Below, piece by piece: positions 14,770 through 45,530 of a DNA stretch of 57,518 bases (position 1 is the stretch's first letter; each line of letters starts with the position of its first letter). The stretch is from IMG/VR virus record IMGVR_UViG_2861048470_000006. One strand, written 5' to 3'. The stretch comes from a virus. Taxonomy: Duplodnaviria; Heunggongvirae; Uroviricota; Caudoviricetes. The notes beneath the pieces were generated by a model. That model saw only the letters and a list, made by a program, of their open reading frames with translations, made no database searches and was not told the origin of the DNA. The position numbers and the translations under genes were made by a program.

Positions 14770-15447
14770 ATGTCCATCATTTTTAATGGACACTATCGTA
14801 TGAAACACCGGACCTGGATCACTGAAGCTTTACGTCTTCACTTTGAAGAACATTTACCCCGGGTTGTGGCCGGGCGTCGCCTGGGTGTACCAAAATCAAC
14901 AGTTTGTAGTATGTTCGTGCGCTTTCGGAGAGCTGGCCTTTCGTGGCCTTTGCCCGCAGGCATGTCGGAGCAGGAACTTGATGCCTGCCTTTACGGACAA
15001 TTTTCCACGGTACCAGTCGTACGTCCTGAAAGCACCGTTATATCCGAAGCCCCCGTGGTAAAAAAACGTCCCCGGCGGCCCAACTTCCCTTATGAGTTTA
15101 AAATCGCCTTAGTGGAGCAGTCACTGCAGCCCGGAGCCTGTGTGGCGCAGATCGCCCGGGAAAACGGAATCAACGATAACCTGCTCTTCAACTGGCGCCA
15201 TCAATACCGGAAAGGTGGCCTGCTGCCTTCCGGAAAAAATATGCCGGCACTGCTTCCCGTGACGTTAACGCCGGAGCCGGATAATAAAATCCCGGCCCCC
15301 GCACAGGAACCAGAGCAGATAAATACACCGCCCGACAGTCTGTGTTGTGAGCTGGTTCTGCCGGCCGGAACTCTCAGGCTTAAAGGTAAACTGACGCCGG
15401 CGTTATTACAGACACTTATCCGCGAAATAAAAGGGAGCAGCCACTGA
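14770..15447 (+). CDS. IS66-family accessory protein OrfA with extra N-terminal HTH-like extension
   Basis: 225-aa ORF; C-terminal half (RPRRPNFPYEFK...NDNLLFNWRHQYRKG) aligns with OrfA of the second IS66-family copy at 43197. Confidence 0.75.
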   Translation: MSIIFNGHYRMKHRTWITEALRLHFEEHLPRVVAGRRLGVPKSTVCSMFVRFRRAGLSWPLPAGMSEQELDACLYGQFSTVPVVRPESTVISEAPVVKKRPRRPNFPYEFKIALVEQSLQPGACVAQIARENGINDNLLFNWRHQYRKGGLLPSGKNMPALLPVTLTPEPDNKIPAPAQEPEQINTPPDSLCCELVLPAGTLRLKGKLTPALLQTLIREIKGSSH

Positions 15448-15794
15448 TGATATCTCTCCCTGCAGGTTCGCGTATCTGGCTGGTTGCAGGTATCACCGAT
15501 ATGCGAAATGGCTTTAACGGCCTGGCATCAAAAGTTCAGAACGTCCTGAAGGATGACCCGTTCTCCGGACACCTGTTCATCTTCCGCGGACGCCGGGGTG
15601 ACCAGATAAAAGTGTTGTGGGCTGACAGTGACGGACTGTGCCTCTTCACCAAACGCCTGGAGCGGGGCCGCTTCGTCTGGCCAGTCACCCGTGACGGCAA
15701 GGTGCACCTTACTCCGGCTCAGTTATCCATGCTTCTTGAAGGTATCAACTGGAAGCACCCGAAACGAACGGAACGCGCTGGAATCCGCATATAA
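15447..15794 (+). CDS. IS66-family OrfB (TnpB-like)
   Basis: 115-aa ORF, ~75% identical by eye to the OrfB at 43595; conserved [16 protein letters not shown]. Confidence 0.85.
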   Translation: MISLPAGSRIWLVAGITDMRNGFNGLASKVQNVLKDDPFSGHLFIFRGRRGDQIKVLWADSDGLCLFTKRLERGRFVWPVTRDGKVHLTPAQLSMLLEGINWKHPKRTERAGIRI

Positions 15795-15813
15795 CCCGTT
15801 GTAAAGTGAGGAT

Positions 15814-17385
15814 ATGGACACCTCACTTGCTCATGAGAACGCCCGCCTGCGGGCACTGTTGCAGACGCAACAGGACACCATCCGCCAGATGGCTGAATAC
15901 AACCGCCTGCTCTCACAGCGGGTGGCGGCTTATGCTTCCGAAATCAACCGGCTGAAGGCGCTGGTTGCGAAACTGCAACGTATGCAGTTCGGTAAAAGCT
16001 CAGAAAAACTTCGTGCAAAAACCGAACGGCAGATACAGGAAGCACAGGAGCGAATCAGCGCACTTCAGGAAGAAATGGCGGAAACGCTGGGTGAGCAATA
16101 TGACCCGGTACTGCCATCCGCCCTGCGCCAGTCTTCAGCCCGTAAACCGTTACCGGCCTCACTTCCCCGTGAAACCCGGGTTATCCGGCCGGAAGAGGAA
16201 TGCTGTCCTGCCTGTGGTGGTGAACTCAGTTCTCTGGGATGTGATGTGTCAGAGCAACTGGAGCTTATCAGCAGCGCCTTTAAGGTTATCGAAACACAAC
16301 GTCCGAAACAGGCCTGTTGCCGGTGCGACCATATCGTGCAGGCACCAGTACCTTCAAAACCCATTGCACGCAGTTATGCCGGAGCGGGGCTTCTGGCCCA
16401 TGTTGTCACCGGGAAATATGCAGACCATCTGCCGTTATACCGCCAGTCAGAAATATACCGTCGTCAGGGAGTGGAGCTGAGCCGTGCCACACTGGGGCGC
16501 TGGACAGGTGCTGTTGCTGAACTGCTGGAGCCGCTGTATGACGTCCTGCGCCAGTATGTGCTGATGCCCGGTAAAGTCCATGCTGATGATATCCCCGTCC
16601 CGGTCCAGGAGCCGGGCAGCGGTAAAACCCGGACAGCCCGGCTGTGGGTCTACGTCCGTGATGACCGTAACGCCGGTTCACAGATGCCCCCGGCGGTCTG
16701 GTTCGCGTACAGTCCGGACCGGAAAGGTATCCATCCACAAAATCACCTGGCCGGTTACAGCGGTGTGCTTCAGGCCGATGCTTACGGTGGTTACCGGGCG
16801 TTATACGAATCCGGCAGAATAACGGAAGCCGCGTGTATGGCTCATGCCCGGAGAAAAATCCACGATGTGCATGCAAGAGCGCCCACCTACATCACCACGG
16901 AAGCCCTGCAGCGTATCGGTGAACTGTATGCCATCGAGGCAGAGGTCCGGGGCTGTTCAGCAGAACAGCGTCTGGCGGCAAGAAAAGCCAGAGCCGCGCC
17001 ACTGATGCAGTCACTGTATGACTGGATACAGCAACAGATGAAAACACTGTCGCGTCACTCAGATACGGCAAAAGCGTTCGCATACCTGCTGAAACAGTGG
17101 GATGCACTGAACGTGTACTGCAGTAATGGCTGGGTGGAAATCGACAACAACATCGCAGAGAACGCCTTACGGGGAGTGGCCGTAGGCCGGAAAAACTGGA
17201 TGTTCGCGGGTTCCGACAGCGGTGGTGAACATGCGGCGGTGTTGTACTCGCTGATCGGCACATGCCGTCTGAACAATGTGGAGCCAGAAAAGTGGCTGCG
17301 TTACGTCATTGAACATATCCAGGACTGGCCGGCAAACCGGGTACGCGATCTGTTGCCCTGGAAAGTTGATCTGAGCTCTCAGTAA
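15814..17385 (+). CDS. IS66-family transposase OrfC
   Basis: 523-aa ORF with N-terminal leucine zipper, CxxC...CxxC zinc-finger and DDE core, parallel to ORF at 43992. Confidence 0.9.
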
Positions 17386-17811: not shown

Positions 17812-18386
17812 CGCTTTATTACTATCCTCAGTTGATGCTGCAGCGCATAGCCCAGCTCTTTCGGAAGACGTTCACGCCGTATCCGTTCAATATTCTGTTT
17901 AAACGCCGTGGTAAGCGGCACCGCCATCGGGATTTTCACCACATCAATGGGGTAACGGTTTTTCCCGGCCACACGCTGCATGACATGCCACCGGCCATTT
18001 TTCAGTTGCTGAATAAACGCGCCGGGAATACGACGGTTTCCCACCACAAGCACGCTGCCGCCACCTTTCAGGGATGAACGCTGCCCCTTTTTACGACGCC
18101 TGCGGCGCGAAAGGACAACCCGCGCGTTACCCAGCTTGATTACGGGCAAATCCCCCCGGTTAACCCTGATTCTGGCCTGCGGATTTTTGACCGTGGCCCT
18201 TTTCAGCCTGGCCCTTTCCTTTACCAGTTTCCGGCGTACCTTTGTCTCACGGGCAACCTGTGCCACCGACTGCGATATCGCGGATGAAGCAACGCGGTTA
18301 ATGGCCATTGCGGCGGCACCGGGCACCGCCGTTCTGCTGATACGGCTGAGGTTTTCAACGGCCTGCTCAAGACCTTTTATGGCCAT
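17808..18386 (-). CDS. Z: tail completion protein Z
   Basis: 192-aa ORF starting MAIKGLEQAVENLSRIS, lambda gpZ-like. Confidence 0.9.
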   Translation of the reverse strand: MAIKGLEQAVENLSRISRTAVPGAAAMAINRVASSAISQSVAQVARETKVRRKLVKERARLKRATVKNPQARIRVNRGDLPVIKLGNARVVLSRRRRRKKGQRSSLKGGGSVLVVGNRRIPGAFIQQLKNGRWHVMQRVAGKNRYPIDVVKIPMAVPLTTAFKQNIERIRRERLPKELGYALQHQLRIVIKR

Positions 18387-18397
18387 ACATCCCCCTT

Positions 18398-18751
18398 TCA
18401 GCGGCGACGGTTAACGGCAGGCGGTACGCCCCGCCCAAGCCAGAGATGACAGCTTCCGCCATCATCCGGCGAAATCCGGTCTATCCAGAAGTTTTCCTCA
18501 CCGATGGTCAGCGTGTCGCCGCGCCGCAGCTGCCGCACATCATCAGTCCGGACAAACAGGGACGGGCTGGAGCCTTCAACGCGCACGCCCTGTCCGGCAT
18601 AGCTGATATTTTCAGGGTCATCAAAAACACCACGTATCACCGCACCTGACTGCTCACCGGATGTCATGGTGGCTGACGTTCCCATGTACCCGCGTATCGT
18701 TTCATCGGCGCGGGCAATGGCAGCATCGAACAGGTTATCGAAATCAGCCAC
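18398..18751 (-). CDS. FII: head-tail connector protein FII
   Basis: 117-aa ORF matching lambda gpFII. Confidence 0.9.
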   Translation of the reverse strand: MADFDNLFDAAIARADETIRGYMGTSATMTSGEQSGAVIRGVFDDPENISYAGQGVRVEGSSPSLFVRTDDVRQLRRGDTLTIGEENFWIDRISPDDGGSCHLWLGRGVPPAVNRRR

Positions 18752-18762
18752 AGCGCCTCCCG

Positions 18763-19149
18763 TTATTGCATTCTGGCCAGGCCGCGCTCTGTCATTTCGG
18801 CTGCCACACCGGCAGAGACACGAAACGCCGTTCCCGGCAGCACAAATGCCACAGGTTTATCCCGCGTGGCGTGAAGTGCATCGGTATGCAGCGTCACCAG
18901 TGCCACAACCGTGACCAGAGCAGCCGTATCAGTCACGGTATCCGGCTGCGCTGATACCACCTCATTTTCATGTCCGGTCAGCGCATTTTCCGGGCTGAGA
19001 GGGGTATCCTGATCGGCAGTGTCATCAAGCTCCTCTTCCAGCTCTGCCACACGGAGCGCCAGTTCTTCTTTCGTCCCCGTCAGGCTGACATCACGGTTCA
19101 GTTGCTCACCCAGCTCCTGAAGACGGGCAATCAGTTCATCTTTCGTCAT
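18763..19149 (-). CDS. FI: DNA packaging protein FI
   Basis: lambda gpFI-like; start placed at internal ATG (MTKDELIARL) preceded by GGAGGAG RBS rather than the upstream track start. Confidence 0.85.
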   Translation of the reverse strand: MTKDELIARLQELGEQLNRDVSLTGTKEELALRVAELEEELDDTADQDTPLSPENALTGHENEVVSAQPDTVTDTAALVTVVALVTLHTDALHATRDKPVAFVLPGTAFRVSAGVAAEMTERGLARMQ

Positions 19150-19190
19150 GAACTCCTCCACAGAGAGAAAATGGCCCCGAAGGGCCATGA

Positions 19191-20216
19191 TTACGCCAGT
19201 TGTACGGACACGAACGCATCAGGATCAGCCAGCAGCATCAGCGGTGCTGACTGAATCATGGTGAACTCACGCGCCGGATCGCCGGTGGTCACCCAGTTTT
19301 TCGGGTAGCGGGCAGAGGCGTTAATACCTTCGCGCTGTGCGTCCGCATCCTGAATGCAGCCATAGGTGCGCAGACCGCGTGCCTGAGTGTTCCCCAGCAC
19401 CATCGTGTTGTCCGGAAGGAAGTTCTTTTTGACGTCGTTTTCCACGTACTGTCCGGAATACACGACGATCGCCGTATCGCCATACATCCCCTTATAGGAC
19501 ACCGCTTCGCCCAGGTCTTTTACCGCTGTCTCCAGCTCGGAATTAGAGCCGCGACGGGTATCCAGCTTCTCCTTGACGGCTTTGAAGGAACGGAACAGCG
19601 CCCAGCCTTTCGGATCAAACACGATGATATTCACCACGCCGCTGGCGTTCAGCGCGTAGGCTTCGATATCGTCGGTCGGGTCATACGTGGACTTGTCACG
19701 CTTGCTCCACTCCGTGCCGCCGGACTGCGTGATGTTGTTGGCCGCACTGCGGCCCATATCCACCTCAACCGGATCGAAAGCTTCACCGGTCATGGTGTAT
19801 TTGCCCTTAAGCACGGCAGAAACTGCCTGCATCTCTTCGACCTGGGCAATGGCCAGCTCTTCGTCACGCATGTTCTGCATAATGATGCGACGGCGGCGGT
19901 AAGCCGGGTCCGCCAGATTCTGCGGATCTTCATCCGGCAGGCGACGCAGGGTCATCTGCGGATTCACCTCATGCTTCGGCTTGACATATCCCGGCGTAAA
20001 TTCAGAGGTGGAGCCGCCACGGGAGCGGATAACCTCACCGGAAACAATCGGCGAAACGTACAGCGCCATGTTTACCAGCCCCGGAATTTGTGAGAGATAG
20101 ACTTTCTCCGTGGTGAAGGGATAGCTCTCACGGAAAAAGAGACGCAGAAACAGCGGATCAAACTTAAATTTCTGCTCATTTGCCGCCAGCAGCTGGGCGG
20201 TTGTGTACATCGACAT
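19191..20216 (-). CDS. E: major capsid protein E
   Basis: lambda gpE-like; start placed at MSMYTTAQLLAANEQ. Confidence 0.9.
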   Translation of the reverse strand: MSMYTTAQLLAANEQKFKFDPLFLRLFFRESYPFTTEKVYLSQIPGLVNMALYVSPIVSGEVIRSRGGSTSEFTPGYVKPKHEVNPQMTLRRLPDEDPQNLADPAYRRRRIIMQNMRDEELAIAQVEEMQAVSAVLKGKYTMTGEAFDPVEVDMGRSAANNITQSGGTEWSKRDKSTYDPTDDIEAYALNASGVVNIIVFDPKGWALFRSFKAVKEKLDTRRGSNSELETAVKDLGEAVSYKGMYGDTAIVVYSGQYVENDVKKNFLPDNTMVLGNTQARGLRTYGCIQDADAQREGINASARYPKNWVTTGDPAREFTMIQSAPLMLLADPDAFVSVQLA

Positions 20217-20271
20217 AAAAAAATCCCGTAAAAAAAGCCGCACAGGCGGCCTTTAGTGATGAAGGGTAAGG

Positions 20272-20604
20272 TTAAACGATGCTGATTGCCGTTCCGGCAA
20301 ACGCGGTCCGTTTTTTCGTCTCGTCGCTGGCAGCCTCCGGCCAGAGCACATCCTCATAACGGAACGTGCCGGACTTGTAGAACGTCAGCGTGGTGCTGGT
20401 CTGGTCAGCAGCAACAGCAAGAATGCCAACGGCAGCACCGTCGGTGGTGCCATCCCACGCAACCAGCTTACGGGTGGAGGTGTCCAGCATCAGCGGGGTC
20501 ATTGCAGGCGCTTTCGCACTCAATCCGCCTGGCGCGGTTGCGGTATGAGCCGGGTCACTGTTGCCCAGCGGCTGGTAATGGGTAAAGGTTTCTTTGCTCG
20601 TCAT
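20272..20604 (-). CDS. D: head decoration protein D
   Basis: lambda gpD-like; start placed at [12 protein letters not shown]. Confidence 0.9.
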
Positions 20605-20613
20605 AAACATCCC

Positions 20614-21913
20614 TTACACTGGTGTGTTCAGCAAATCGTTAACGGCATCAGATGCCGGGTTACCTGCAGCCAGCGGTGCCGGTGCCCCCTGCATCAGACG
20701 ATCCAGCGCAGTGTCACTGCGCGCCTGTGCACTCTGTGGTGCTGCGGCCAGAATGCGGCGGGCCGTTTCCACGGTCATACCGGGGGTTTCTGCCAGCACG
20801 CGCGCCTGTTCTTCGCGTCCGTGAGCCTCCTCACAGTTGAGGATCCCCATAATGCGGCTGTTTTCTGCCGCAACCGCTGCAGTGATCTGCGCGTTCACGT
20901 CCGGCTGCGCCGCGCTGGCGTTTTCGCCCTCCGTCGCTGGCACCACGTCAGTAACGTCAGCCTGCGAAGCAGTGGCTGAAACAGTTGTTGATTGAGTCTC
21001 TTTGGTCATTCGCCCTCCTGAGAGACGGGATTTATGTGCATCCAGTGCATCACGCATGACGGTGATCGCATCGGTGCTGTTAACAAGTTCATCAGCCAGT
21101 CCGGCATCAATGGCCTCCTGACCGCTGTACACTGCAGCCTCGGTATCCAGCACAGCCTGCACAGACAGGCCGGTATATGCCGACACCTTCTGCGCAAACA
21201 TCTGGCGGGTTGCGTCCATCCGGGACTGCAGTGTCTCCCGGACGTCATCCGGAAGATGGCTGTAAGGATTGCCATCCACCTTATGGCTGCCGCTGTAAAT
21301 CAGCGTGATTTCCACGCCCTGTTTCTCCAGGGCAGCACCGTAATTACTGTGAGCCATCATGACGCCGATGGAGCCTGTCCGGGCGGTCTGCGTGACCAGA
21401 CGCCGGGAGGCGGCACTGGCAAGCAGCTGACCTGCACTGCAGTTCATGTCGTTGGCCAGCGCCCATACCGGTTTTATGTCACGCACACGGGCGATGATGT
21501 CAGCGCAGTCAAATGCCCCCGCCACCATTCCGCCTGGCGTGTCCATATCGAGCAGAATGCCGTCCACCATCGGGTCGCTGGCAGCCTGTTGCAGACGGGC
21601 GATAATGCCGTTGTAACCGGTCATCCCCGAGTACGGCTGCAGCGCCCGCGTCCGGCTGACCAGCGTGCCGGAAACCGACAGCACGGCGATGCCGTTCATG
21701 ACCTGATAACTGCGGGCCTGTCGTGGTCCGTCATCATCACCGGATAACGCCAGCGTCGCGAGTGTCTCCTGGGCAGTCAGGCTGTCACCGGACACCGCAT
21801 CCGTCAGGCGGCTGATCCCAAGCTGGCCTGCAAGCGCACAAAAGAAAACCCGCGCATAGGCGGGTTCAAGCATCAGCGGCTCATTAAAGGCCATACTGGC
21901 AATATGCGGGAGA

Positions 21914-27103: not shown

Positions 27104-27397
27104 ATGAAAAAAATGTTGTTTTCTGCCGCTCTGGCAATGCTTATTACAGGATGTGCTCAACAGACGTTTACTGTTGGAAACAAACCGACAGCAGTAACAC
27201 CAAAGGAAACCATCACCCATCATTTCTTCGTTTCGGGAATTGGACAGGAGAAAACTGTTGATGCAGCCAAAATTTGTGGCGGCGCAGAAAATGTTGTTAA
27301 AACAGAAACCCAGCAAACATTCGTAAATGGATTTCTCGGTTTTATTACTTTAGGCATTTATACTCCGCTGGAAGCGCGTGTGTATTGCTCACAATAA
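27104..27397 (+). CDS. bor: Bor lipoprotein (serum-resistance, Iss-like)
   Basis: MKKMLFSAALAMLITGCAQQTFTV... lipobox LITGC; near-identity to lambda Bor; opposite strand to late genes as in lambda; start at ATG 27104 with AGGA RBS. Confidence 0.9.
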   Translation: MKKMLFSAALAMLITGCAQQTFTVGNKPTAVTPKETITHHFFVSGIGQEKTVDAAKICGGAENVVKTETQQTFVNGFLGFITLGIYTPLEARVYCSQ

Positions 27398-27568
27398 CTG
27401 CATGAGTTGCCCATCAAACGGGCAACTCTTTCTACTTTGTTCCTCCCCCCCGGAAACGGCGGAAGTAAGAAATTATGTCATCGAATGATCACAAACATAG
27501 AATTTCATGCTTTCCGGACGCAAGTGACCCCTTCATTTTTCAGCAAAATATTCTGCTCTTACAGGCGA

Positions 27569-27751
27569 TCAGTTCTGCATACACTGCCGAACACCGTCGA
27601 CAATTTCACAGACCTGAGAAGCCGTATCGAAAAGCTGGCGCGCTTTATCCAGGCTGACGCATCCCACCAAGAAAAAAGGCACCAGTATCGCTACCAGTGC
27701 CCATTTCGCCGCCGTTCGCGGCATTCTGTGTGTCCAGTGTTTTCGCGTCAT
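27569..27751 (-). CDS. small lipoprotein (signal peptide with lipobox LVGC), function unknown
   Basis: 60-aa ORF; N-terminal basic n-region, hydrophobic core, LVGC lipobox; start overlaps preceding small ORF (TGATATG). Confidence 0.5.
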   Translation of the reverse strand: MTRKHWTHRMPRTAAKWALVAILVPFFLVGCVSLDKARQLFDTASQVCEIVDGVRQCMQN

Positions 27752-27752
27752 A

Positions 27753-27866
27753 TCACCACCAACGCACAGCCCAAATCAGAACAGCGACCGCCACAAGGCG
27801 AATTGCAAAGGCCGCAGCCCTTGTCAAATCAAGGCTCGCGGGAGTTTCCACTTCAATACCTTTCAT
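27753..27866 (-). CDS. candidate 37-aa single-TM peptide (MKGIEVETPASLDLTRAAAFAIRLVAVAVLIWAVRWW)
   Basis: hand-translated sub-60-aa ORF immediately upstream of and overlapping the lipoprotein gene; no RBS check beyond a GAGG 9 nt upstream. Confidence 0.3.
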   Translation of the reverse strand: MKGIEVETPASLDLTRAAAFAIRLVAVAVLIWAVRWW

Positions 27867-27951
27867 AATGGACAACCTCAAAAAGAATCTTTTATACTTT
27901 CCCACGAGGATTTTCTCCGTACTCACTACTCACAATTTCCTCTTTGACGTG

Positions 27952-27992
27952 AAAACTAAAAACCCCGGACTGTTCCAGCAGCCGGGGTTTTT
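27952..27992. terminator. GC hairpin flanked by A-run and T-run (possible bidirectional intrinsic terminator) downstream of endolysin gene
   Basis: aaaaCCCCGG-13 nt-CCGGGGttttt; coordinates approximate. Confidence 0.4.
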
Positions 27993-28085
27993 GCTATCTG
28001 ATGCTGTACCCCTTACTTTCGCTCATCGTAACCCCAGAAAAGAGCCTGCGTGAGTTGAGGGTGTTCAGCACTTCAGCGTCAGTTT

Positions 28086-28652
28086 TTAAACTGCTACGCG
28101 CTCTTTCATCCAGCCGTAGACAAACGACTCGTTGGCCTCGCGTTTTTCTGCCAGCTCCAGATAGCGGTCGCCCTGCGTGCAATTCAGCGCCTTCAGCATC
28201 ACCAGTTCGCCGTCTTTGCCGCGTTTTTGCAGATAAGTCCGTAGTGCATTAATCGTGCGGGGGCCGATACGCCCGTCTGCGTCCATATCCGGGAACAATT
28301 TGCCTTGCAGGTTGAAAACGTTCAGCCAGCGTTGGAGCATTTTCGATGCTACGGACGGCCCCATATTCACACCGGTATCACACAACTCTGCAGCAATATC
28401 AGAGGATAATGCGGCCACCTGATCAAAGCGTGGTCCGAACCAGTAATCCGCCTCAAGGATTTCCAGTGCCTGTTCGCGTGTCAGGTCACGCATATCGCCC
28501 TGATATCCGTGAGCGCGGGCGACTTTTTCCGTAATACCCCATTTTGTCGGTCCGCCTTTATCATCCGGGTGATTGACGTAACCGCCCTCTTTTCCCAGAA
28601 CTTCGTCAAAAATTTCATCTTTCGACTTCATATCAGCGTCTTCGTAATACAA
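28086..28652 (-). CDS. endolysin, glycoside hydrolase family 108-type N-domain with C-terminal peptidoglycan-binding domain
   Basis: 188-aa ORF with EGGY motif (VLGKEGGYVNHPDDKGGPTKWGIT) characteristic of GH108/COG3926; follows holin. Confidence 0.7.
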   Translation of the reverse strand: MYYEDADMKSKDEIFDEVLGKEGGYVNHPDDKGGPTKWGITEKVARAHGYQGDMRDLTREQALEILEADYWFGPRFDQVAALSSDIAAELCDTGVNMGPSVASKMLQRWLNVFNLQGKLFPDMDADGRIGPRTINALRTYLQKRGKDGELVMLKALNCTQGDRYLELAEKREANESFVYGWMKERVAV

Positions 28653-28965
28653 AGATTTTTGAAACGTTCCCGCGTGCGCGAATAACCAACACGCAGAACA
28701 GCAGATTAAGCCCCACCGCCAGCCAGTTCGCCGCTAACGGGCGACCGCACAGATAACTGAGTGGTGCAAAGGCATAAAGCAGCATCAGCAGCCAGGCCAG
28801 CCATGACATCAACGGTTTATGTCTGGAATCACGACGACGATAAAAAAAGAGCGTCAGCACGATAACCGTGCATAACGCCACATTCAGCAATCCGGGAAGG
28901 TTACTTAACATTGCCGCCTCCTCCGCCCCGCAGACGGGAGAACAGACCGGACACCAGTGATGCAA
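28633..28965 (-). CDS. small multi-TM membrane protein between holin and endolysin (possible antiholin/lysis accessory)
   Basis: 110-aa track ORF, three hydrophobic segments; real start may be internal ATG at 28911. Confidence 0.4.
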   Translation of the reverse strand: MHHWCPVCSPVCGAEEAAMLSNLPGLLNVALCTVIVLTLFFYRRRDSRHKPLMSWLAWLLMLLYAFAPLSYLCGRPLAANWLAVGLNLLFCVLVIRARGNVSKIFVLRRR

Positions 28966-29293
28966 TATCCTGCTGGTGGATGAACGAGAGAATCTTCACC
29001 GACACCACTGACACCAGTACTGCACACAATGCGTCGACAGGTGCACCGTCAAACTCTGTATGCTTTACCAGCCAGGATGCCAGAACTTCTGCCCCCAGCA
29101 CACCAACAATGAACGACACCAGAAAATGTGCCGCCACACGCCAGGCTGAAAGCGCCTGCGGCATCGTTGCCACAAATAACGCCCCGGCAAAGGCACCAAA
29201 CACAATCCCGAAATCCGTTCCGGTAAACAGCCCGTACACCGTCGCCCCGCCGAGCGCTGCAGCCGTGCCGGAACCGGATAAGGGTTCAGACAT
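28901..29293 (-). CDS. putative holin (multi-TM small membrane protein)
   Basis: start set at MSEPLSG (ATG 29293) with AGGAG RBS 7 nt upstream; hydrophobic segments; first gene of lysis cassette after terminator. Confidence 0.55.
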   Translation of the reverse strand: MSEPLSGSGTAAALGGATVYGLFTGTDFGIVFGAFAGALFVATMPQALSAWRVAAHFLVSFIVGVLGAEVLASWLVKHTEFDGAPVDALCAVLVSVVSVKILSFIHQQDIASLVSGLFSRLRGGGGGNVK

Positions 29294-29308
29294 ACTTTTT
29301 CTCCTGTA

Positions 29309-29333
29309 AATAAAAAAGGGCCACCAGCGGCCC
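29309..29333 (-). terminator. intrinsic terminator-like hairpin immediately upstream of holin (tR'-like candidate)
   Basis: minus strand GGGCC-6 nt-GGCCC followed by UUUUUUAUU; coordinates approximate. Confidence 0.5.
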
Positions 29334-29650
29334 GTAAAAAAACACCCCGTGAAAGGCACCCGCAGATACCTTTTATGTGGTGTTATCTGATGTGATATGC
29401 GCCTGACGTGGCTCGGAGAAAATGAAATAAAGCTTATCTGAAATTAAGGTTAATCCGGGGGTTTAAACCATTTTTAAAGCTTAGTAATATCAAATCGTCT
29501 CCTGGAGGAGACTGATGCTTATTCTTCTTCACGGACTTTGTCCCGCGGCGTTAATCCGACAGCCGCGCTTTTTTTGCGCTCAGTTCATTATTGGCTTTCA
29601 TGGCCTTGCCACACGGGTAATATCAATGCCCGTGTATTCTTTTCTGAGTT

Positions 29651-30040: not shown

Positions 30041-30115
<75 letters not shown>

Positions 30116-30118
30116 ATA

Positions 30119-30194
<76 letters not shown>

Positions 30195-30362: not shown

Positions 30363-31409
30363 TTAACGATTATTTTTTATTTCAGTTACAGTCTGATTAA
30401 ATCTCTCTTCTTCCAGTTCCACGCCAATTGCGCGACGTCCCAGTGAAAGTGCTGCTTTTATTGTTGAGCCAGACCCCATAAAAAAATCAGCGACCAAATC
30501 ACCGGGGCGACTGCTGGCAGTAATTATCTGACGCAACATATCTGCCGGTTTTTCACAGGGATGTTTGCCTGGATAATACTGCACAGGCTTGTGCGTCCAG
30601 ACATCCGTATACGGAACAGCAGCTGATACGGAAAAATAACGCCGCAGGGATTTATACTCCTCCTGCAGGCTGGCATATTGCCGGTTCAGTTCACTGTATG
30701 TGCTGACCAGCTGGTGGTGCGGCTTTTCCAGCTCCCCGCGCTGGTGTTTTTCTGCTGCAACACGCGCGAACAGCGCCTGAAGTTTTTTGTAATCAGCCTC
30801 GTTCGGCAACTGCCACTGACTGGCACCAAACCAGTGTGACGCCATGTTTTTCTTTCCGGTGGCTTCCGCTATCTGTTTTGATGTTATTCCCAGAGATTCT
30901 CGCGCATCACGAAAGTAAGAAATCAGCGGGGCCATGACGCACTGTTTAAGCTCGCGCCCCTTTGCCGCATAGCCGTCATTTTTGGGCTGGTATGGCCCCT
31001 GATAATGTTCAGCAAACAGAATGCGCTCTGTTGCCGGGAAATACGCCCGCAGGCTTTCCTTGTTGCATCCGTTCCAGCGTCCGGACGGCTTCGCCCAGAT
31101 AATGTGGTTCAGCACATTAAAGCGTTCACGCATCATGATTTCGATATCAGATGCCAGGCGATGCCCACAGAACAGGTAAAGGCTTCCGGCAGGTTTCAAC
31201 ACCCGCCAGAACTGGGCCAGACAGTGGTCCAGCCACTTAAGGTAATCTTCGTCCCCTTTCCACTGATTGTCCCAACCGTTGGGTTTCACCTTGAAGTAAG
31301 GCGGATCGGTAACAATCAGGTCAATGGAATCATCAGGCAGGGACTGAATAAAATGCAGGCAATCAGCGTTGATTAAATCAACACTGTTTATTTTTACAGT
31401 ATTTTTCAT
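30363..31409 (-). CDS. orphan DNA methyltransferase (N6-adenine/N4-cytosine class, DPPY motif)
   Basis: 348-aa ORF; motif IV DPPY near N-terminus (DLIVTDPPYF) and FxGxG SAM-binding motif near C-terminus (FFMGSGST), beta-class order; no adjacent restriction gene. Confidence 0.8.
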   Translation of the reverse strand: MKNTVKINSVDLINADCLHFIQSLPDDSIDLIVTDPPYFKVKPNGWDNQWKGDEDYLKWLDHCLAQFWRVLKPAGSLYLFCGHRLASDIEIMMRERFNVLNHIIWAKPSGRWNGCNKESLRAYFPATERILFAEHYQGPYQPKNDGYAAKGRELKQCVMAPLISYFRDARESLGITSKQIAEATGKKNMASHWFGASQWQLPNEADYKKLQALFARVAAEKHQRGELEKPHHQLVSTYSELNRQYASLQEEYKSLRRYFSVSAAVPYTDVWTHKPVQYYPGKHPCEKPADMLRQIITASSRPGDLVADFFMGSGSTIKAALSLGRRAIGVELEEERFNQTVTEIKNNR

Positions 31410-32009: not shown

Positions 32010-33293
32010 ATGACAGCAGAAATAGCCGTATTTAACAAGACCGCAGTAGCTTTAGCCGCAGATTCAGCTGTAACGATTTCTGGAGGCGGCAAACATAAAA
32101 TCTATAATGGCGCTGAAAAGCTTTTCGCTCTCACTAAACATCATCCTGTAGGTTTGATGGTATATGGAACTGGTGATCTCTGCACAGCTCCATGGGAGCT
32201 TATCATTAAGGCTTATAGAAAGGATTTAGGCTCTAAATGTTTTGACTCTTTGGAGGAATATGCTGAGGATTTCTTCAATTATCTACAGTCAGCTAAATCA
32301 ATCATCACACCAGGTATGCGTGAGGCTCATCTTTATCACTTCCTGAGCGAGATTGTATTCAGCATGCTTGTTGATGCTTTTTCTGAAGGTCTCGAACCAA
32401 CATATCTCGTTAACTTCGATAAGAATCAATTTGTTACAGACCTCACGAATTATTGCAACGATCTCCTTACAAAATTATCTGATATTAATTACTTTGATGG
32501 TTTTACTCCGGATGATGAACAAGCAGCCCAAACCTATGCTTCATCAATTACCCAACGCATCATTGCTCAAAAGTTTAGTGACTTTGATTCAATATCCATA
32601 ACTCCACAGTTGACAAAAGCAGTTAGTGATGTATTGGCAGCTATGATATGCAAGCAAAGTGATATTGGTTCCGTCTCTGGGATTGTGATTGCAGGTTATG
32701 GCGATAAAGACTATTACCCTAAAGTATTATCATATGAAGTTTGTGGCTTCTTTAATGATAAAATAAGGAAAACCACAGATGCTGACAAGTGCTGCATCAC
32801 TCCTAATTGCGGCGTGACTCCCTTTGCGCAAGAGGATGAAGTTTCTGCTTTCATGCAAGGAGCTAGTTCACATCTTATCCAAAATCTTCATGCTGAGTAT
32901 CAACGTTCTATCGGCGATTTACTTGATGGTATTGATTCAGTAATCACAGATTTGGTGCCCACTTCAGATATCGAAGGAGCCAAGGATGCTATAGTTGATG
33001 TAGTGCGCAGAACTGTTTCCGATTGCAAGGGGCGAATTGATAGCTTTGTCCGAGAAAACTATGTTGACAAAGTCGTAAATATGATCGAGTTTTTACCCAA
33101 GCAAGATTTAGCTTATATGGCTGAATCATTAGTAAATTTAACCGCTTTCAAGCGCAAGGTCTCCGATGATACTGAAACAGTGGGAGGCCCCATAGATGTT
33201 GCAATCATTTCTAAAGCTGATGGTTTTATCTGGGTTAAACGTAAGCACTATTTTGCAAAAGAACTGAACCATCACTACTTTTCACGGTCATAG
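32010..33293 (+). CDS. 427-aa protein with N-terminal HslV/proteasome-beta-like Ntn-hydrolase region (Thr2) and uncharacterised C-terminal half
   Basis: N-terminus MTAEIAVFNKTAVALAADSAVT aligns position-for-position with HslV [21 protein letters not shown] as recalled; GxGD-like segment GLMVYGTGDL; lower GC than flanks; opposite strand to phage late genes. Confidence 0.5.
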   Translation: MTAEIAVFNKTAVALAADSAVTISGGGKHKIYNGAEKLFALTKHHPVGLMVYGTGDLCTAPWELIIKAYRKDLGSKCFDSLEEYAEDFFNYLQSAKSIITPGMREAHLYHFLSEIVFSMLVDAFSEGLEPTYLVNFDKNQFVTDLTNYCNDLLTKLSDINYFDGFTPDDEQAAQTYASSITQRIIAQKFSDFDSISITPQLTKAVSDVLAAMICKQSDIGSVSGIVIAGYGDKDYYPKVLSYEVCGFFNDKIRKTTDADKCCITPNCGVTPFAQEDEVSAFMQGASSHLIQNLHAEYQRSIGDLLDGIDSVITDLVPTSDIEGAKDAIVDVVRRTVSDCKGRIDSFVRENYVDKVVNMIEFLPKQDLAYMAESLVNLTAFKRKVSDDTETVGGPIDVAIISKADGFIWVKRKHYFAKELNHHYFSRS

Positions 33294-40543: not shown

Positions 40544-42547
40544 TTAACGAACCAGATGCAGGAAGTGCAGGTGTTTTTCGTACTGGTCCAGTATGTCATT
40601 AATCAGCTGTTCCTGATTCCAGCCCATTACATCATAATTTTGGCCGCCCTCTTTGAGATAGACTTCAGCGCGATAATATCGATGTTGTTCACTCTGCTGC
40701 TCATCATTATCCAGCGCAGCGAGCGCGAAGGTCGGTGAGTTATACCCGCGAAGCCTCACTTCATATATATAATTCAGCTCGTTGCCCAAATCGACTTCAA
40801 GGCGAATACGATCCTCGGCGGCGTCACTGATGTGGCTTATCGTTCCCTGCTTGTTAAGTTCCTCCTGAACCAGCGTCATGGCGGGTTGGATAATGTCGTC
40901 CATAAAACGTTTCACAAGAGAGCGCTTCGGCAAATACGCGATATTGCGTAACCTTCTCTGCCAGGGAATTGGGTTACGTGCAGCCGTAGGAGCAATAGTC
41001 GCCATGCTAAGGCTTTCACGCTTGGTCAAATCCCGACGCAGGGCTTTTAACAGTCCGTATATGGATATTAATAAGATAACTGAGAAGGGCAATGCACTCG
41101 CTATCGTTACGGTTTGCAACGCACTCAGCCCCCCTGCGATCAGCAGGGCAATAGCAACAACGCCCATGAGCAATGCCCAGAAAATTCGCTGCCAGACGGG
41201 CGTGTTTGCCACCCCACCTGATGCCAGAGTATCCACAACCATTGCCCCCGAATCAGCAGACGTTACAAAGAAGACGATGACCATCGCCATTGCAATGAAT
41301 GACAGCACGGAAGAGAACGGGAAATGCTCCAGGAAATTAAACAGGGCAAGCGCAACATCCTGCTGAACGGTATTGGCGAGGTCAGTGGCGCCCTGGTTCA
41401 TGATGAGATAGATGGCGCTGTTTCCAAACACCGTCATCCACATGAGCGTAAAGCCGGCGGGAACAAACAACACGCCAGTCACGAACTCACGAATTGTCCT
41501 GCCGCGGGAAACGCGTGCAATGAACATACCTACAAACGGCGACCATGAAAGCCACCATCCCCAGTATAATAATGTCCAGCCCCCCAGCCAGTTGCTCGAC
41601 TTGGGTTCATACGCGTAAAGGTTGAACGTTTTACTCACCAGTTCCGACAGATAACCACCCGTATTTTCCACAAATGACTTCAGCAGAAGCACAGTGGGAC
41701 CCAGGCACAAGACCAGCGCCAGGAGCAACACCGCCAGGCCCAGATTAAGCTCAGACAGGATGCGTATTCCCTTGTCCAGGCCGGACACCACCGAAATCGT
41801 CGCTAACCCCGTGATGACCACGATCAAAATGACCTGTACCGTTTCATTGATGGGCACGCCGAAAAGATGGTTCAAACCGGCATTCACCTGCAATACACCG
41901 TAACCCAGCGATGTTGCAACGCCAAAGACAGTGCCTATCACGGCGAAGATATCAACCGCGTGGCCTATAGGCCCGTAAATGCGATCGCCGATAATGGGAT
42001 AGAGCGCAGAACGCAGCGTTAAAGGCAGACCGTGACGGTAACTGAAAAAGGCCAGAATCAGCGCCACGATGGCATAAATTGCCCATGCGTGCAGACCCCA
42101 GTGGAAGAACGTCAGGCGCATGGCTTCCTTCGCTGCCGCAACGGTCTCTGGAGTGCCGACAGGTGGCGAAAGATAATGCATCACAGGTTCGGCAACGCCA
42201 AAGAACATCAGGCCGATCCCCATCCCTGCCGAAAAAAGCATCGCGAACCAGGAGTGGTAGCTGAAATCAGGCTGCGCATGGTCTGGGCCCAGCTTTATAT
42301 CACCGTAACGTGAGAGTCCAAGGAACGTGACGCTCAGTAAAATCAGGGCCACAGCAAGTATGTAGAACCAGCTGGCATTCGTGAAGATTTGTTGCTGAAG
42401 TAGTTTAAAATTTTTGTCGGCGACATCCGGGAATACGGCGGCAAAGGCGACAAGAAGGAAAATTAGCAAAGCAGATGTAAAGAATACCGCTTTGTTAACC
42501 TGGCTTGTAGACTTCTTTGGGGTTGTATCATTTTCACTCATAATCAT
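40544..42547 (-). CDS. BCCT-family transporter (BetT/BetU-like choline/betaine transporter)
   Basis: 667-aa ORF; conserved BCCT segments (GDIKLGP, WTLLYWGWWLSWSPFVGMFIARVSRGRTIREF) parallel E. coli BetT as recalled. Confidence 0.85.
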   Translation of the reverse strand: MIMSENDTTPKKSTSQVNKAVFFTSALLIFLLVAFAAVFPDVADKNFKLLQQQIFTNASWFYILAVALILLSVTFLGLSRYGDIKLGPDHAQPDFSYHSWFAMLFSAGMGIGLMFFGVAEPVMHYLSPPVGTPETVAAAKEAMRLTFFHWGLHAWAIYAIVALILAFFSYRHGLPLTLRSALYPIIGDRIYGPIGHAVDIFAVIGTVFGVATSLGYGVLQVNAGLNHLFGVPINETVQVILIVVITGLATISVVSGLDKGIRILSELNLGLAVLLLALVLCLGPTVLLLKSFVENTGGYLSELVSKTFNLYAYEPKSSNWLGGWTLLYWGWWLSWSPFVGMFIARVSRGRTIREFVTGVLFVPAGFTLMWMTVFGNSAIYLIMNQGATDLANTVQQDVALALFNFLEHFPFSSVLSFIAMAMVIVFFVTSADSGAMVVDTLASGGVANTPVWQRIFWALLMGVVAIALLIAGGLSALQTVTIASALPFSVILLISIYGLLKALRRDLTKRESLSMATIAPTAARNPIPWQRRLRNIAYLPKRSLVKRFMDDIIQPAMTLVQEELNKQGTISHISDAAEDRIRLEVDLGNELNYIYEVRLRGYNSPTFALAALDNDEQQSEQHRYYRAEVYLKEGGQNYDVMGWNQEQLINDILDQYEKHLHFLHLVR

Positions 42548-43196: not shown

Positions 43197-43598
43197 GTGG
43201 GAACCAAAGTGTCAGATATGCAGAAAAATGTGACTCCCGGCAGGCGAAAAGGCTGCCCTAATTATCCTCCCGAATTTAAACAGCAGCTCGTTGCTGCCTC
43301 CTGTGAACCCGGGATATCCATCTCAAAACTTGCTCTTGAAAATGGCATTAACGCCAATCTGTTGTTCAAATGGCGACAACAATGGCGCGAGGGAAAGCTG
43401 CTATTACCTTCTTCAGAGAGCCCCCAGCTACTTCCTGTGACTCTCGATGCAGCTGCCGAACAGCCAGAATCGCTCGCAGAGGACCCGGAAACCCTCAGTA
43501 TCAGCTGTGAGGTAACGTTCCGGCACGGGACGCTCCGCTTCAATGGCAATGTCAGCGAAAAGCTCCTGACTCTGCTGATACAGGAACTGAAGCGATGA
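43197..43598 (+). CDS. IS66-family OrfA
   Basis: 133-aa ORF. Confidence 0.85.
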   Translation: MGTKVSDMQKNVTPGRRKGCPNYPPEFKQQLVAASCEPGISISKLALENGINANLLFKWRQQWREGKLLLPSSESPQLLPVTLDAAAEQPESLAEDPETLSISCEVTFRHGTLRFNGNVSEKLLTLLIQELKR

Positions 43599-43942
43599 TC
43601 CCGTTACCTTCCGGGACCAAAATTTGGCTGGTTGCCGGTATCACCGATATGAGAAATGGCTTCAACGGCCTGGCTGCGAAAGTACAAACGGCGCTGAAAG
43701 ACGATCCCATGTCCGGCCATGTTTTCATTTTCCGGGGCCGCAGCGGCAGTCAGGTTAAACTGCTGTGGTCCACCGGTGACGGACTGTGCCTCCTGACCAA
43801 ACGGCTGGAGCGTGGGCGCTTCGCCTGGCCGTCAGCCCGTGATGGCAAAGTGTTCCTTACGCAGGCGCAGCTGGCGATGCTGCTGGAAGGTATCGACTGG
43901 CGACAGCCCAAGCGGTTGCTGACCTCCCTGACCATGCTGTAA
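43595..43942 (+). CDS. IS66-family OrfB (TnpB-like)
   Basis: 115-aa ORF, 4-nt overlap with orfA. Confidence 0.85.
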
Positions 43943-43991
43943 ATCTCTTTATCCTGGTTGTCACAGAATAAGCCCGGTAAAATACGGGCTT

Positions 43992-45530
43992 ATGAACGAC
44001 ATCTCTTCTGACGACATCTTCCTGCTGAAACAGCGCCTGGCCGAACAGGAAGCGCTGATCCACGCCCTGCAGGAAAAGCTGAGCAACCGGGAGCGCGAAA
44101 TAGACCATCTGCAGGCGCAGCTGGATAAACTCCGCCGGATGAACTTCGGCAGTCGTTCCGAAAAAGTCTCCCGCCGTATCGCACAAATGGAAGCCGATCT
44201 GAACCGGCTTCAGAAAGAGAGCGATACGCTGACTGGTAGGGTGTATGACCCGGCTGTACAGCGTCCGTTGCGTCAGACCCGCACCCGTAAGCCGTTCCCT
44301 GAATCACTACCCCGTGACGAAAAGCGACTGTTGCCTGCGGCGCCGTGCTGCCCGAACTGCGGCGGTTCACTGAGCTATCTGGGCGAGGATACCGCCGAAC
44401 AGCTGGAGTTGATGCGTAGTGCCTTCCGGGTTATCCGGACGGTACGGGAAAAACATGCCTGTACTCAGTGCGATGCCATCGTGCAGGCACCTGCACCTTC
44501 GCGGCCCATCGAGCGGGGTATCGCCGGACCGGGGCTGCTGGCCCGCGTGCTGACCTCGAAGTATGCAGAGCACACCCCGCTGTATCGCCAGTCAGAAATA
44601 TACGGCCGGCAAGGTGTGGAGCTGAGCCGTTCACTGCTGTCGGGCTGGGTGGATGCATGCTGCCGGCTGCTGTCTCCGCTGGAAGAGGCGCTTCATGGCT
44701 ATGTCATGACTGACGGCAAACTCCATGCCGATGATACCCCGGTCCAGGTACTGCTGCCGGGTAATAAGAAGACGAAGACCGGGCGGTTGTGGGCGTATGT
44801 TCGTGATGACCGCAATGCCGGGTCAGCGTTGGCACCTGCAGTGTGGTTCGCTTACAGCCCGGACAGAAAAGGCATCCATCCGCAGACTCATCTTGCCTGC
44901 TTCAGCGGTGTGCTGCAAGCGGATGCGTACGCCGGGTTCAACGAGCTGTATCGCAATGGTGGGATAACGGAAGCTGCCTGCTGGGCTCATGCCCGCCGAA
45001 AGATCCACGATGTGCACGTCCGCATCCCGTCAGCACTGACGGAAGAAGCCCTGGAGCAGATCGGTCAGTTGTACGCCATAGAGGCGGATATAAGGGGAAT
45101 GCCGGCAGAGCAGCGGCTTGCTGAACGTCAGCGAAAAACGAAACCGCTGTTGAAATCCCTGGAAAGCTGGTTGCGTGAAAAGATGAAAACCCTGTCGCGA
45201 CACTCAGAACTGGCGAAAGCGTTCGCATACGCCCTGAACCAGTGGCCGGCGCTGACGTACTATGCAGATGATGGCTGGGCTGAGGCGGACAATAACATCG
45301 CTGAAAATGCGTTGCGGATGGTCAGTCTGGGCCGCAAAAACTACCTGTTCTTCGGTTCGGATCATGGAGGAGAGCGGGGAGCGCTGCTGTACAGCCTGAT
45401 CGGGACGTGCAAACTGAACGGAGTGGAGCCAGAAAGCTACCTCCGCTATGTCCTTGACGTCATAGCCGACTGGTCGATAAACCGGGTCGGCGAACTGCTC
45501 CCCTGGCGCGTAGCACTGCCGACTGAATAA
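43992..45530 (+). CDS. IS66-family transposase OrfC
   Basis: 512-aa ORF. Confidence 0.9.

Follow-up and report, generated by a model that had tools for sequence, protein, structure and literature searches.

In the current model of phage lysis, spanins must connect the inner membrane physically to the outer one and bring about their fusion. Two-component spanins, such as lambda Rz/Rz1, associate a type II inner-membrane subunit (i-spanin) with a proline-rich outer-membrane lipoprotein (o-spanin), and Rz1 dimers are disulfide-linked. Very small lipoproteins, with mature forms of about 25-35 aa, are also known to permeabilise the envelope, namely the colicin lysis lipoproteins and entericidin B. 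Here, we describe a lysis cassette carried by the minus strand of a 57,518-nt stretch of DNA from a member of the Caudoviricetes (IMG/VR virus record IMGVR_UViG_2861048470_000006; hereafter, the window). The last gene of this cassette (27569-27751) encodes a 60-aa prolipoprotein with an LVGC lipobox (Cys31). This late lysis cassette belongs to a lambda-like prophage of enterotoxigenic Escherichia coli (ETEC) and is devoid of Rz/Rz1. From positional and comparative evidence, we tentatively propose that the lipoprotein is an outer-membrane lysis factor acting without a periplasm-spanning partner.

Like the o-spanins of lambda and of other two-component systems, this lipoprotein is encoded at the last position of the cassette, after the endolysin, and combines a lipoprotein signal of the outer-membrane type with conserved cysteines in its periplasmic part. 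Unlike these systems, it has no type II inner-membrane subunit, and its mature part is a predicted helical peptide of 30 aa instead of a proline-rich one. Hence, the lipoprotein signal and the cassette location of a two-component spanin are present here, whereas the i-spanin subunit and the bridging length are missing. The unimolecular spanin gp11 of phage T1 is likewise encoded by a single gene in the spanin slot and also has an N-terminal lipoprotein signal. However, the window's lipoprotein differs from it by the lack of a C-terminal membrane segment and by a length far too short for the periplasm. A third likeness is with gp28, the disruptin of phage phiKT, a single small predicted helical peptide that would take over outer-membrane disruption from a spanin. 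Cationic and devoid of a signal sequence, this disruptin carries no lipid anchor (Holt et al., bioRxiv 10.1101/515445). In contrast, the lipoprotein has a mature charge of -1 and a Sec/lipoprotein signal, which sets it apart from disruptins. It also differs from the colicin lysis lipoproteins and entericidin B, since it belongs to a phage late operon and not to a colicin operon and since none of 18 members of its family has a Pfam match, be it to the corresponding families (even at E ≤ 10) or to any other.

The phiP27 homologue and its catalogued partner

In their survey of phage spanins (SpaninDB), Kongari et al. (2018, PMC6139136) listed phage phiP27 as encoding a 'separated' two-component spanin, the shortest of those surveyed, with 62 periplasmic residues. 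Its o-spanin entry (20706-20861 of the phage record) has 51 aa, with a mature form of 30 aa that is 83% predicted helix, and its i-spanin entry (20348-20542) has 64 aa and a TTG start (PMC6139136). Our analysis indicates that this o-spanin belongs to the family of the window's lipoprotein (95% identity) and was read from a non-conserved methionine, Met10. The phiP27 cassette also resembles that of the window: two holins and an endolysin, then the lipoprotein. In GenBank, the coding sequence L32 of phiP27, which overlaps the lipoprotein gene, is annotated in the wrong frame.

The status of the catalogued partner is doubtful. The 64-aa open reading frame (ORF) is absent from the window and has no PHROG family. 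Furthermore, it lies (2899-3093 of locus L001, NC_003356) antisense to a conserved gene encoding 90 aa (2837-3109; phrog_36812, E 5e-20). In a diverged relative, it has shrunk to 36 aa, whereas the antisense gene is still intact. Since it matches no PHROG, is antisense to a conserved gene and is not itself conserved, the phiP27 i-spanin is probably spurious, and sequence comparison suggests that the phiP27 system probably consists of a lone lipoprotein. The 62-residue minimum of the survey rests on this doubtful i-spanin. Hence, the SpaninDB entry calls for correction, the 'shortest two-component spanin' being probably without i-spanin. The candidate o-spanin status of the phiP27 homologue was therefore already known from the database. 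What is new here is that the lipoprotein stands alone, that it is a widespread and mobile fourth cassette gene and that its published partner is doubtful.

The lipoprotein as an invariant fourth cassette gene

The only PHROG that the lipoprotein matches is phrog_7528 (E 6e-39), of unknown function, and it matches no spanin family at E ≤ 1. Lipoproteins of the phrog_7528 type form about 140 protein clusters, all from Enterobacteriaceae (E. coli, Salmonella, Yersinia, Cronobacter and Citrobacter), and the gene is carried by 336 of 5426 complete E. coli genomes (~6%). Among isolated phages, it is found in phiP27, phiSTEC1575-Stx2k and vB_Apl-pPE4. The record of the latter (PP818812.1) gives Actinobacillus pleuropneumoniae as host; its cassette DNA (18166-20331) is 88% identical to that of the window and its lipoprotein 93% identical. 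This reveals either an unexpectedly close cross-family match or a questionable host label.

An intact ORF is present at 147 of 158 loci. Calculated from 60 unique alleles, the ratio of nonsynonymous to synonymous polymorphism (pN/pS) is 0.22 across all 60 codons, which indicates purifying selection, and it is alike in codons 1-9, in the signal peptide and in the mature part. The lipobox L-V-G-C with its Cys31, as well as Cys48 and Cys57, is invariant among the homologues. Position +2 is occupied by Val or Ala and position +3 by Ser, Thr or Asn; there is no Asp and no inner-membrane retention signal, as in the lipoprotein signal of o-spanins. The Prokaryotic Genome Annotation Pipeline (PGAP) proposes a 51-aa protein starting at Met10. 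Since this residue varies among homologues and since purifying selection also acts on codons 1-9 (pN/pS 0.19), the PGAP call is wrong and the 60-aa start, already adopted in a preliminary description of the locus, is right. The n-region of the signal peptide is unusually long and basic, and near-invariant (M-x-R-K-H-W-T-H-R-x-P-R; residues 1-16, 27704-27751, minus strand). Its pN/pS of 0.19 indicates a constraint as strong as on the mature part, an unexpected feature in a signal peptide.

Searches in Pfam, NCBIfam, PADLOC and PDB sequences gave nothing for the lipoprotein, and it matches neither Cor (phrog_1119) nor Bor (phrog_260, PF06291) nor any other exclusion family. A profile search against 1.8 billion representatives yielded no more than 23 clusters at E ≤ 0.001. 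Of these, the ones inspected are mostly small lipoproteins that share its cysteine spacing, a few of them fused or truncated, and none connects the lipoprotein to a known family. Braun's lipoprotein Lpp gave a weak hhalign match (probability 46%) whose register extends from the signal peptide through the lipobox to no more than the first 11 residues of the mature part (27569-27660, minus strand); this likeness may simply reflect a shared lipoprotein and heptad character.

A total of 165 lipoprotein loci were gathered from IMG/VR, GenBank phages and other assemblies, from which 80 non-redundant cassettes with complete upstream sequence were retained; a second IMG/VR scan, using a diverged homologue as query, mostly yielded the same contigs again. 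The lipoprotein is intact in 79 of the 80 cassettes, and in all 79 it is preceded by Phage_holin_8, Phage_holin_3_7 and endolysin genes. The sequence immediately upstream of it is variable. The endolysin gene lies directly before the lipoprotein gene, with no gene between, in 34 cassettes (32 with an M15 endopeptidase and two with a GH108 enzyme). Two unrelated small membrane peptides (phrog_1115 and phrog_4906) are encoded before it in 24 others, the small membrane peptide found in the window in 19 and a phiP27-type insertion in two. The last cassette, that of phage GER2, has Rz/Rz1 upstream and a lipoprotein pseudogene. Endolysin and lipoprotein genes are separated by 17 nt in compact cassettes (e.g. 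locus L009) and by 6 nt in a metagenomic relative that is ~55% identical, and they overlap by 4 nt in Yersinia enterocolitica. No membrane partner was found before or after the lipoprotein in these 17-nt, metagenomic and Yersinia cassettes.

The lipoproteins of the window and of Yersinia are ~75% identical and the adjacent holins 24-29% identical. Moreover, the lipoprotein accompanies M15 and GH108 endolysins, and siphovirus and myovirus structural genes. Taken together, these data show that it is genuine and under selection, that it is invariably the fourth gene in cassettes of this type, that it is translationally coupled to whichever gene precedes it, and that recombination has placed it in one slot after endolysins of two unrelated kinds and widely divergent holins. 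Given this variety of holins, endolysins and tail types, the lipoprotein travels with the cassette architecture and not with a single holin, endolysin or tail lineage.

The preliminary description had noticed no recognisable Rz/Rz1 spanin in the cassette and had envisaged that one might appear on closer frame analysis. The absence is confirmed at the scale of the whole window. No Rz/Rz1 homologue was detected there by tblastn, and a six-frame lipobox scan of its 57.5 kb, covering every ORF and every start codon, retained only Bor and the 60-aa protein as credible lipoproteins, with no Rz1-like ORF in any alternative frame. Likewise, no second lipoprotein of the Rz1 type was found in the lysis region of the window or in the fetched flanks (≤5 kb on each side) of 85 loci with an intact lipoprotein, 80 of them from IMG/VR. 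No other i-spanin candidate (N-in/C-out protein whose membrane segment is N-terminal and which also has a periplasmic domain) is encoded by the coding strand of the region, nor is there one within 5 kb in the compact cassettes examined. Rz/Rz1 was not found beside the lipoprotein in the phiP27 and phiSTEC1575-Stx2k loci examined either. The six-frame scan, tblastn and the 85-locus scan thus gave no sign of an Rz/Rz1 pair hidden in other frames or elsewhere in the window. As the gene that comes after the endolysin in the lysis cassette, the lipoprotein gene does sit in the spanin position, as had been supposed.

In the window, two features lie between the endolysin and lipoprotein genes, on the minus strand: an intrinsic-terminator-type hairpin followed by a U-run (27945-27998; stem 27951-27998) and a gene encoding a small membrane peptide (27753-27905). 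The hairpin has a folding energy of -24.7 kcal/mol (z -5.0), and none of 200 shuffled sequences folds as well. The peptide gene is conserved (pN/pS 0.09-0.12) and encodes 50 aa from GTG 27905, or 37 aa if ATG 27866 is used. The short ORF with a single membrane segment was correctly recognised in the preliminary description, but the 37-aa length proposed there is less likely than 50 aa: phrog_4493 matches the 50-aa form end to end at E 1e-23 (positions 1-54 of 56) and the 37-aa form at only 7e-16. The TGATATG junction between the peptide and lipoprotein genes is real, but the genes do not overlap, since a spacer of one base (27752) lies between the TGA and the ATG. An identical stop-spacer-start sequence (28631-28637, minus strand) links the gene of the three-membrane-segment holin to that of the endolysin.

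The earlier description had raised the possibility that this peptide and the lipoprotein constitute a dedicated, minimal two-component spanin. Indeed, the two genes are adjacent in the spanin position, with a 1-nt spacer, both are under purifying selection, and the exact pair, with the peptide directly before the lipoprotein, is found in 131 of the 5426 E. coli genomes. However, the features of the peptide make such a pair very improbable. Its N-terminus is basic (charge +5) and its sole membrane segment (residues 31-47 of 50) is near the C-terminus, which ends with RWW; this C-terminal location leaves the peptide without a periplasmic domain. Furthermore, phage GER2 and at least 672 of the 5426 E. 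coli genomes, including O157:H7, have this peptide gene immediately before a canonical Rz gene, joined to it by the TGATATG sequence found here. It is also missing from the 34 cassettes in which the endolysin directly precedes the lipoprotein, from the 24 that have phrog_1115/phrog_4906 peptides and from the two of phiP27 type. Both its topology and its distribution rule out the peptide as an i-spanin.

The hairpin constitutes the 5' boundary of a module that includes the peptide, and the same element precedes the peptide and Rz in GER2. In Rz-bearing genomes, this module lies between the endolysin and Rz (3030-3290 of the GER2 locus L005; the corresponding part of the window is 27753-27998, minus strand) and is annotated only as 'hypothetical'. 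These data show that the hairpin and the 50-aa tail-anchored peptide form a separate portable module, which is commoner before canonical Rz. More speculatively, the peptide could be a holin-level accessory, like Lcc6 of the Shewanella phage LambdaSo. Each of the two is a small protein of unknown family that crosses the membrane once and is encoded within a lysis cassette, a likeness that is one of description. Lcc6 is required for lysis at the holin level (bioRxiv 10.1101/2024.01.23.576932).

The lipoprotein could also be a true o-spanin whose partner is non-adjacent or variable: a holin-family protein, a host protein or the small peptide that precedes it. It has the features by which o-spanins are recognised in SpaninDB, small membrane peptides are encoded upstream of it in 45 of the 79 intact cassettes, it is constantly linked to the same two holin families, and its conserved cysteines are reminiscent of those of the Rz1 disulfide dimers. 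We nevertheless consider this improbable. No upstream peptide is conserved across the cassettes, 34 of the 80 have none, and the one encoded in the window has no periplasmic domain. As for the holins, the same families coexist with ordinary i/o-spanins in HK639-like phages. Besides, a tail of 30 aa cannot bridge the periplasm unless the partner provides nearly all the length.

Possible roles of the lipoprotein

In related cassettes, the slot occupied by the lipoprotein carries other genes. Overlapped i/o-spanins are found there in HK639, mEp390, the Yersinia phage vB_YpM_41 and a Klebsiella phage, with an i-spanin of 91-93 aa that has an N-terminal membrane segment and a lipoprotein precursor of 69-75 aa. 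Embedded Rz/Rz1 genes occupy it in Salmonella F1055 and Cronobacter ENT39118. Rz/Rz1 and the lipoprotein occur together only in GER2 and in 43 E. coli genomes, including O104:H4, and there the lipoprotein is a pseudogene. The copies of this lineage are at least 99% alike and therefore reflect one evolutionary event. In GER2, the pseudogene (4441-4680 of L005) lies downstream of Rz/Rz1, and contains two in-frame stops. A duplicated TGGTGATATGA junction lies before it and suggests that Rz/Rz1 entered by recombination through the 3' end of the peptide gene.

Other occupants of the slot are toxin genes. In LT-II prophages, type II heat-labile enterotoxin (LT-II) genes directly follow the GH108 endolysin gene (1076-2225 of locus L003 for SerU-LTIIb and 3916-5056 of L088 for Rac-SA53). 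In the window, a gene outside the cassette and on the plus strand (27104-27397; PF06291, E 3.7e-30; 'Iss' in RefSeq) encodes a Bor/Iss lipoprotein. In lambda, bor is located downstream of Rz/Rz1, which we take to match the relative place of Bor/Iss beside the lipoprotein here.

The use of the post-endolysin slot as a cargo site by Rac-SA53 and SerU-LTIIb, together with the adjoining Bor/Iss gene, is consistent with the lipoprotein being a late envelope factor unrelated to lysis (involved in superinfection exclusion, in host fitness or in masking the receptor so that released virions are protected), in phages that have no outer-membrane disruption gene. Moreover, the mature peptide lacks both the length needed to reach the inner membrane and a cationic character, and spanin-less phages exist, since they account for 91 of the 677 phages surveyed (PMC6139136). 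On the other hand, no separate promoter or terminator serves the lipoprotein gene in the compact cassettes, in which it either overlaps the endolysin gene by 4 nt or starts 6-17 nt beyond it. In siphovirus as in myovirus backgrounds, it is associated with the lysis cassette rather than with tail or receptor-binding genes. It matches no Cor, Bor or defence family, and it has decayed in the sole lineage that also holds Rz/Rz1. These findings weaken the unrelated envelope or exclusion factor envisaged in the preliminary description, which we regard as rather unlikely although far from negligible.

If the lipoprotein is instead an outer-membrane lysis factor, as we tentatively favour, it would be exported by the Sec pathway, lipidated at Cys31 and sorted by the Lol system to the outer membrane, because positions +2 and +3 are Val/Ala and Ser/Thr, with no Asp. 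The protein would then display, on the periplasmic face of this membrane, a 29-residue amphipathic, helical and cysteine-bearing tail. Once the endolysin has removed the wall, the lipoprotein would destabilise the outer membrane with no dedicated inner-membrane partner. Such an action would be closer to that of membrane-active lipopeptides and peptides (colicin-release lipoproteins, entericidin B, the phiKT disruptin) than to a fusion of the Rz/Rz1 type. The mature lipoprotein (30 aa) is predicted to be helical, with a net charge of -1 and a heptad-like hydrophobic pattern, and no hydrophobic segment is found after Cys31. Its periplasmic part of 29-30 residues would measure ~4.4 nm as a helix and ~10 nm if fully extended, which falls short of the bridging length of a spanin. 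The lack of a conserved spanning partner and a tail of at most ~4-10 nm favour an action at the outer membrane alone over fusion. It is possible, although we are more doubtful on this point, that a 30-residue lipid-anchored helical peptide suffices alone for the outer-membrane step and would define a third class of outer-membrane lysis protein beside spanins and disruptins, without spanning the periplasm.

Several points weigh against a role of the lipoprotein in lysis. First, its position in the cassette is circumstantial evidence. LT-II prophages, which have near-identical holins and endolysin, show no outer-membrane lysis gene in the slot, and the outer-membrane step may therefore be dispensable. 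Second, the mature lipoprotein, with only 30 aa (~4.4 nm as a helix), is unlike a cationic membrane-lytic peptide. Its amphipathicity is moderate, the helical moment of 0.32-0.45 being matched by 8% of shuffled sequences, and its AlphaFold model, one long helix, is of low confidence (pLDDT 67). Third, it shows no homology to spanins, colicin lysis proteins, entericidins or any other family. Fourth, the one or two small membrane peptides encoded just upstream in 57% of the intact cassettes (45/79) make a loosely specified membrane partner possible. Lastly, a literature search on the lipoprotein, phiP27 lysis and orphan o-spanins found only the SpaninDB listing and no experimental work.

If a lone lipoprotein fills the spanin slot, either the outer membrane can be disrupted by another route or these phages manage without this step. 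The phages concerned include toxin-carrying prophages, i.e. Stx2e (phiP27), Stx2k and ETEC prophages. If it proves to be membrane-active, a 30-residue lipopeptide would also be relevant to lysis engineering and to the design of outer-membrane permeabilisers.

Upstream cassette genes and the surrounding prophage

The gene order of the preliminary description (holin, protein with three membrane segments, EGGY endolysin, hairpin, membrane peptide and LVGC lipoprotein) was recovered in full on the minus strand. The first gene (28901-29293) encodes a 130-aa Phage_holin_8 protein with several membrane segments (PF16931, E 3e-22; phrog_198 holin, E 3e-43). It overlaps by 11 nt the second one (28633-28911), which encodes a 92-aa Phage_holin_3_7 protein with three membrane segments (PF05449, E 2.9e-21; phrog_217, E 2e-37, positions 1-91 of 92). 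Both are putative holins, assigned from their Pfam family matches. A scan of genome contigs with the second one as query retrieved a single, uninformative locus. The third gene (28086-28631) encodes a 181-aa endolysin with GH108 (PF05838, E 1.7e-26) and PG_binding_3 (PF09374, E 1.2e-25) domains. This endolysin has the EGGY motif and is soluble, with no signal sequence and no signal-arrest-release segment. Pfam bit scores are all above the gathering cut-offs: 79.5 versus 26.4 for Phage_holin_8, 75.7 versus 25.4 for Phage_holin_3_7 and 93.0 versus 21.2 for GH108.

Two of the starts previously proposed had to be revised, whereas the proteins themselves are real. For the protein with three membrane segments, TTG 28965 is replaced by ATG 28911, from which PF05449 fits end to end; for the GH108-type endolysin, the best start is ATG 28631 and not TTG 28652. 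In RefSeq, the endolysin is labelled as a GH108 protein and the products of the peptide and lipoprotein genes are both 'hypothetical'.

Lambda-like prophage genes in the window include those of gpJ, a lambda-type tape measure protein and the gpA terminase. Chromosomal DNA from several human ETEC strains matches the lysis region (27400-29400) with 100% identity. Two IS66-family elements are present on the plus strand (14770-17385 and 43197-45530). The first one interrupts the block of virion structural genes, and the prophage is therefore probably defective; in an identical strain, RefSeq flags the large terminase as incomplete. A gene encoding a transporter of the BCCT (betaine/choline) family (40544-42547, minus strand) indicates that the window consists of host chromosome from about 40 kb onward, and the early region of the prophage appears to be short or missing. 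A 427-aa ORF (32010-33293, plus strand), 'hypothetical' in RefSeq, has no Pfam match at E ≤ 1e-5. Just upstream of the cassette, the minus strand carries tRNA-Thr(TGT) and tRNA-Gly(TCC) genes (30041-30194), the only hits in an Rfam scan of the region, and a DNA methyltransferase gene (30363-31409). This arrangement of tRNA and methyltransferase genes is common to phiP27 and the LT-II phages.

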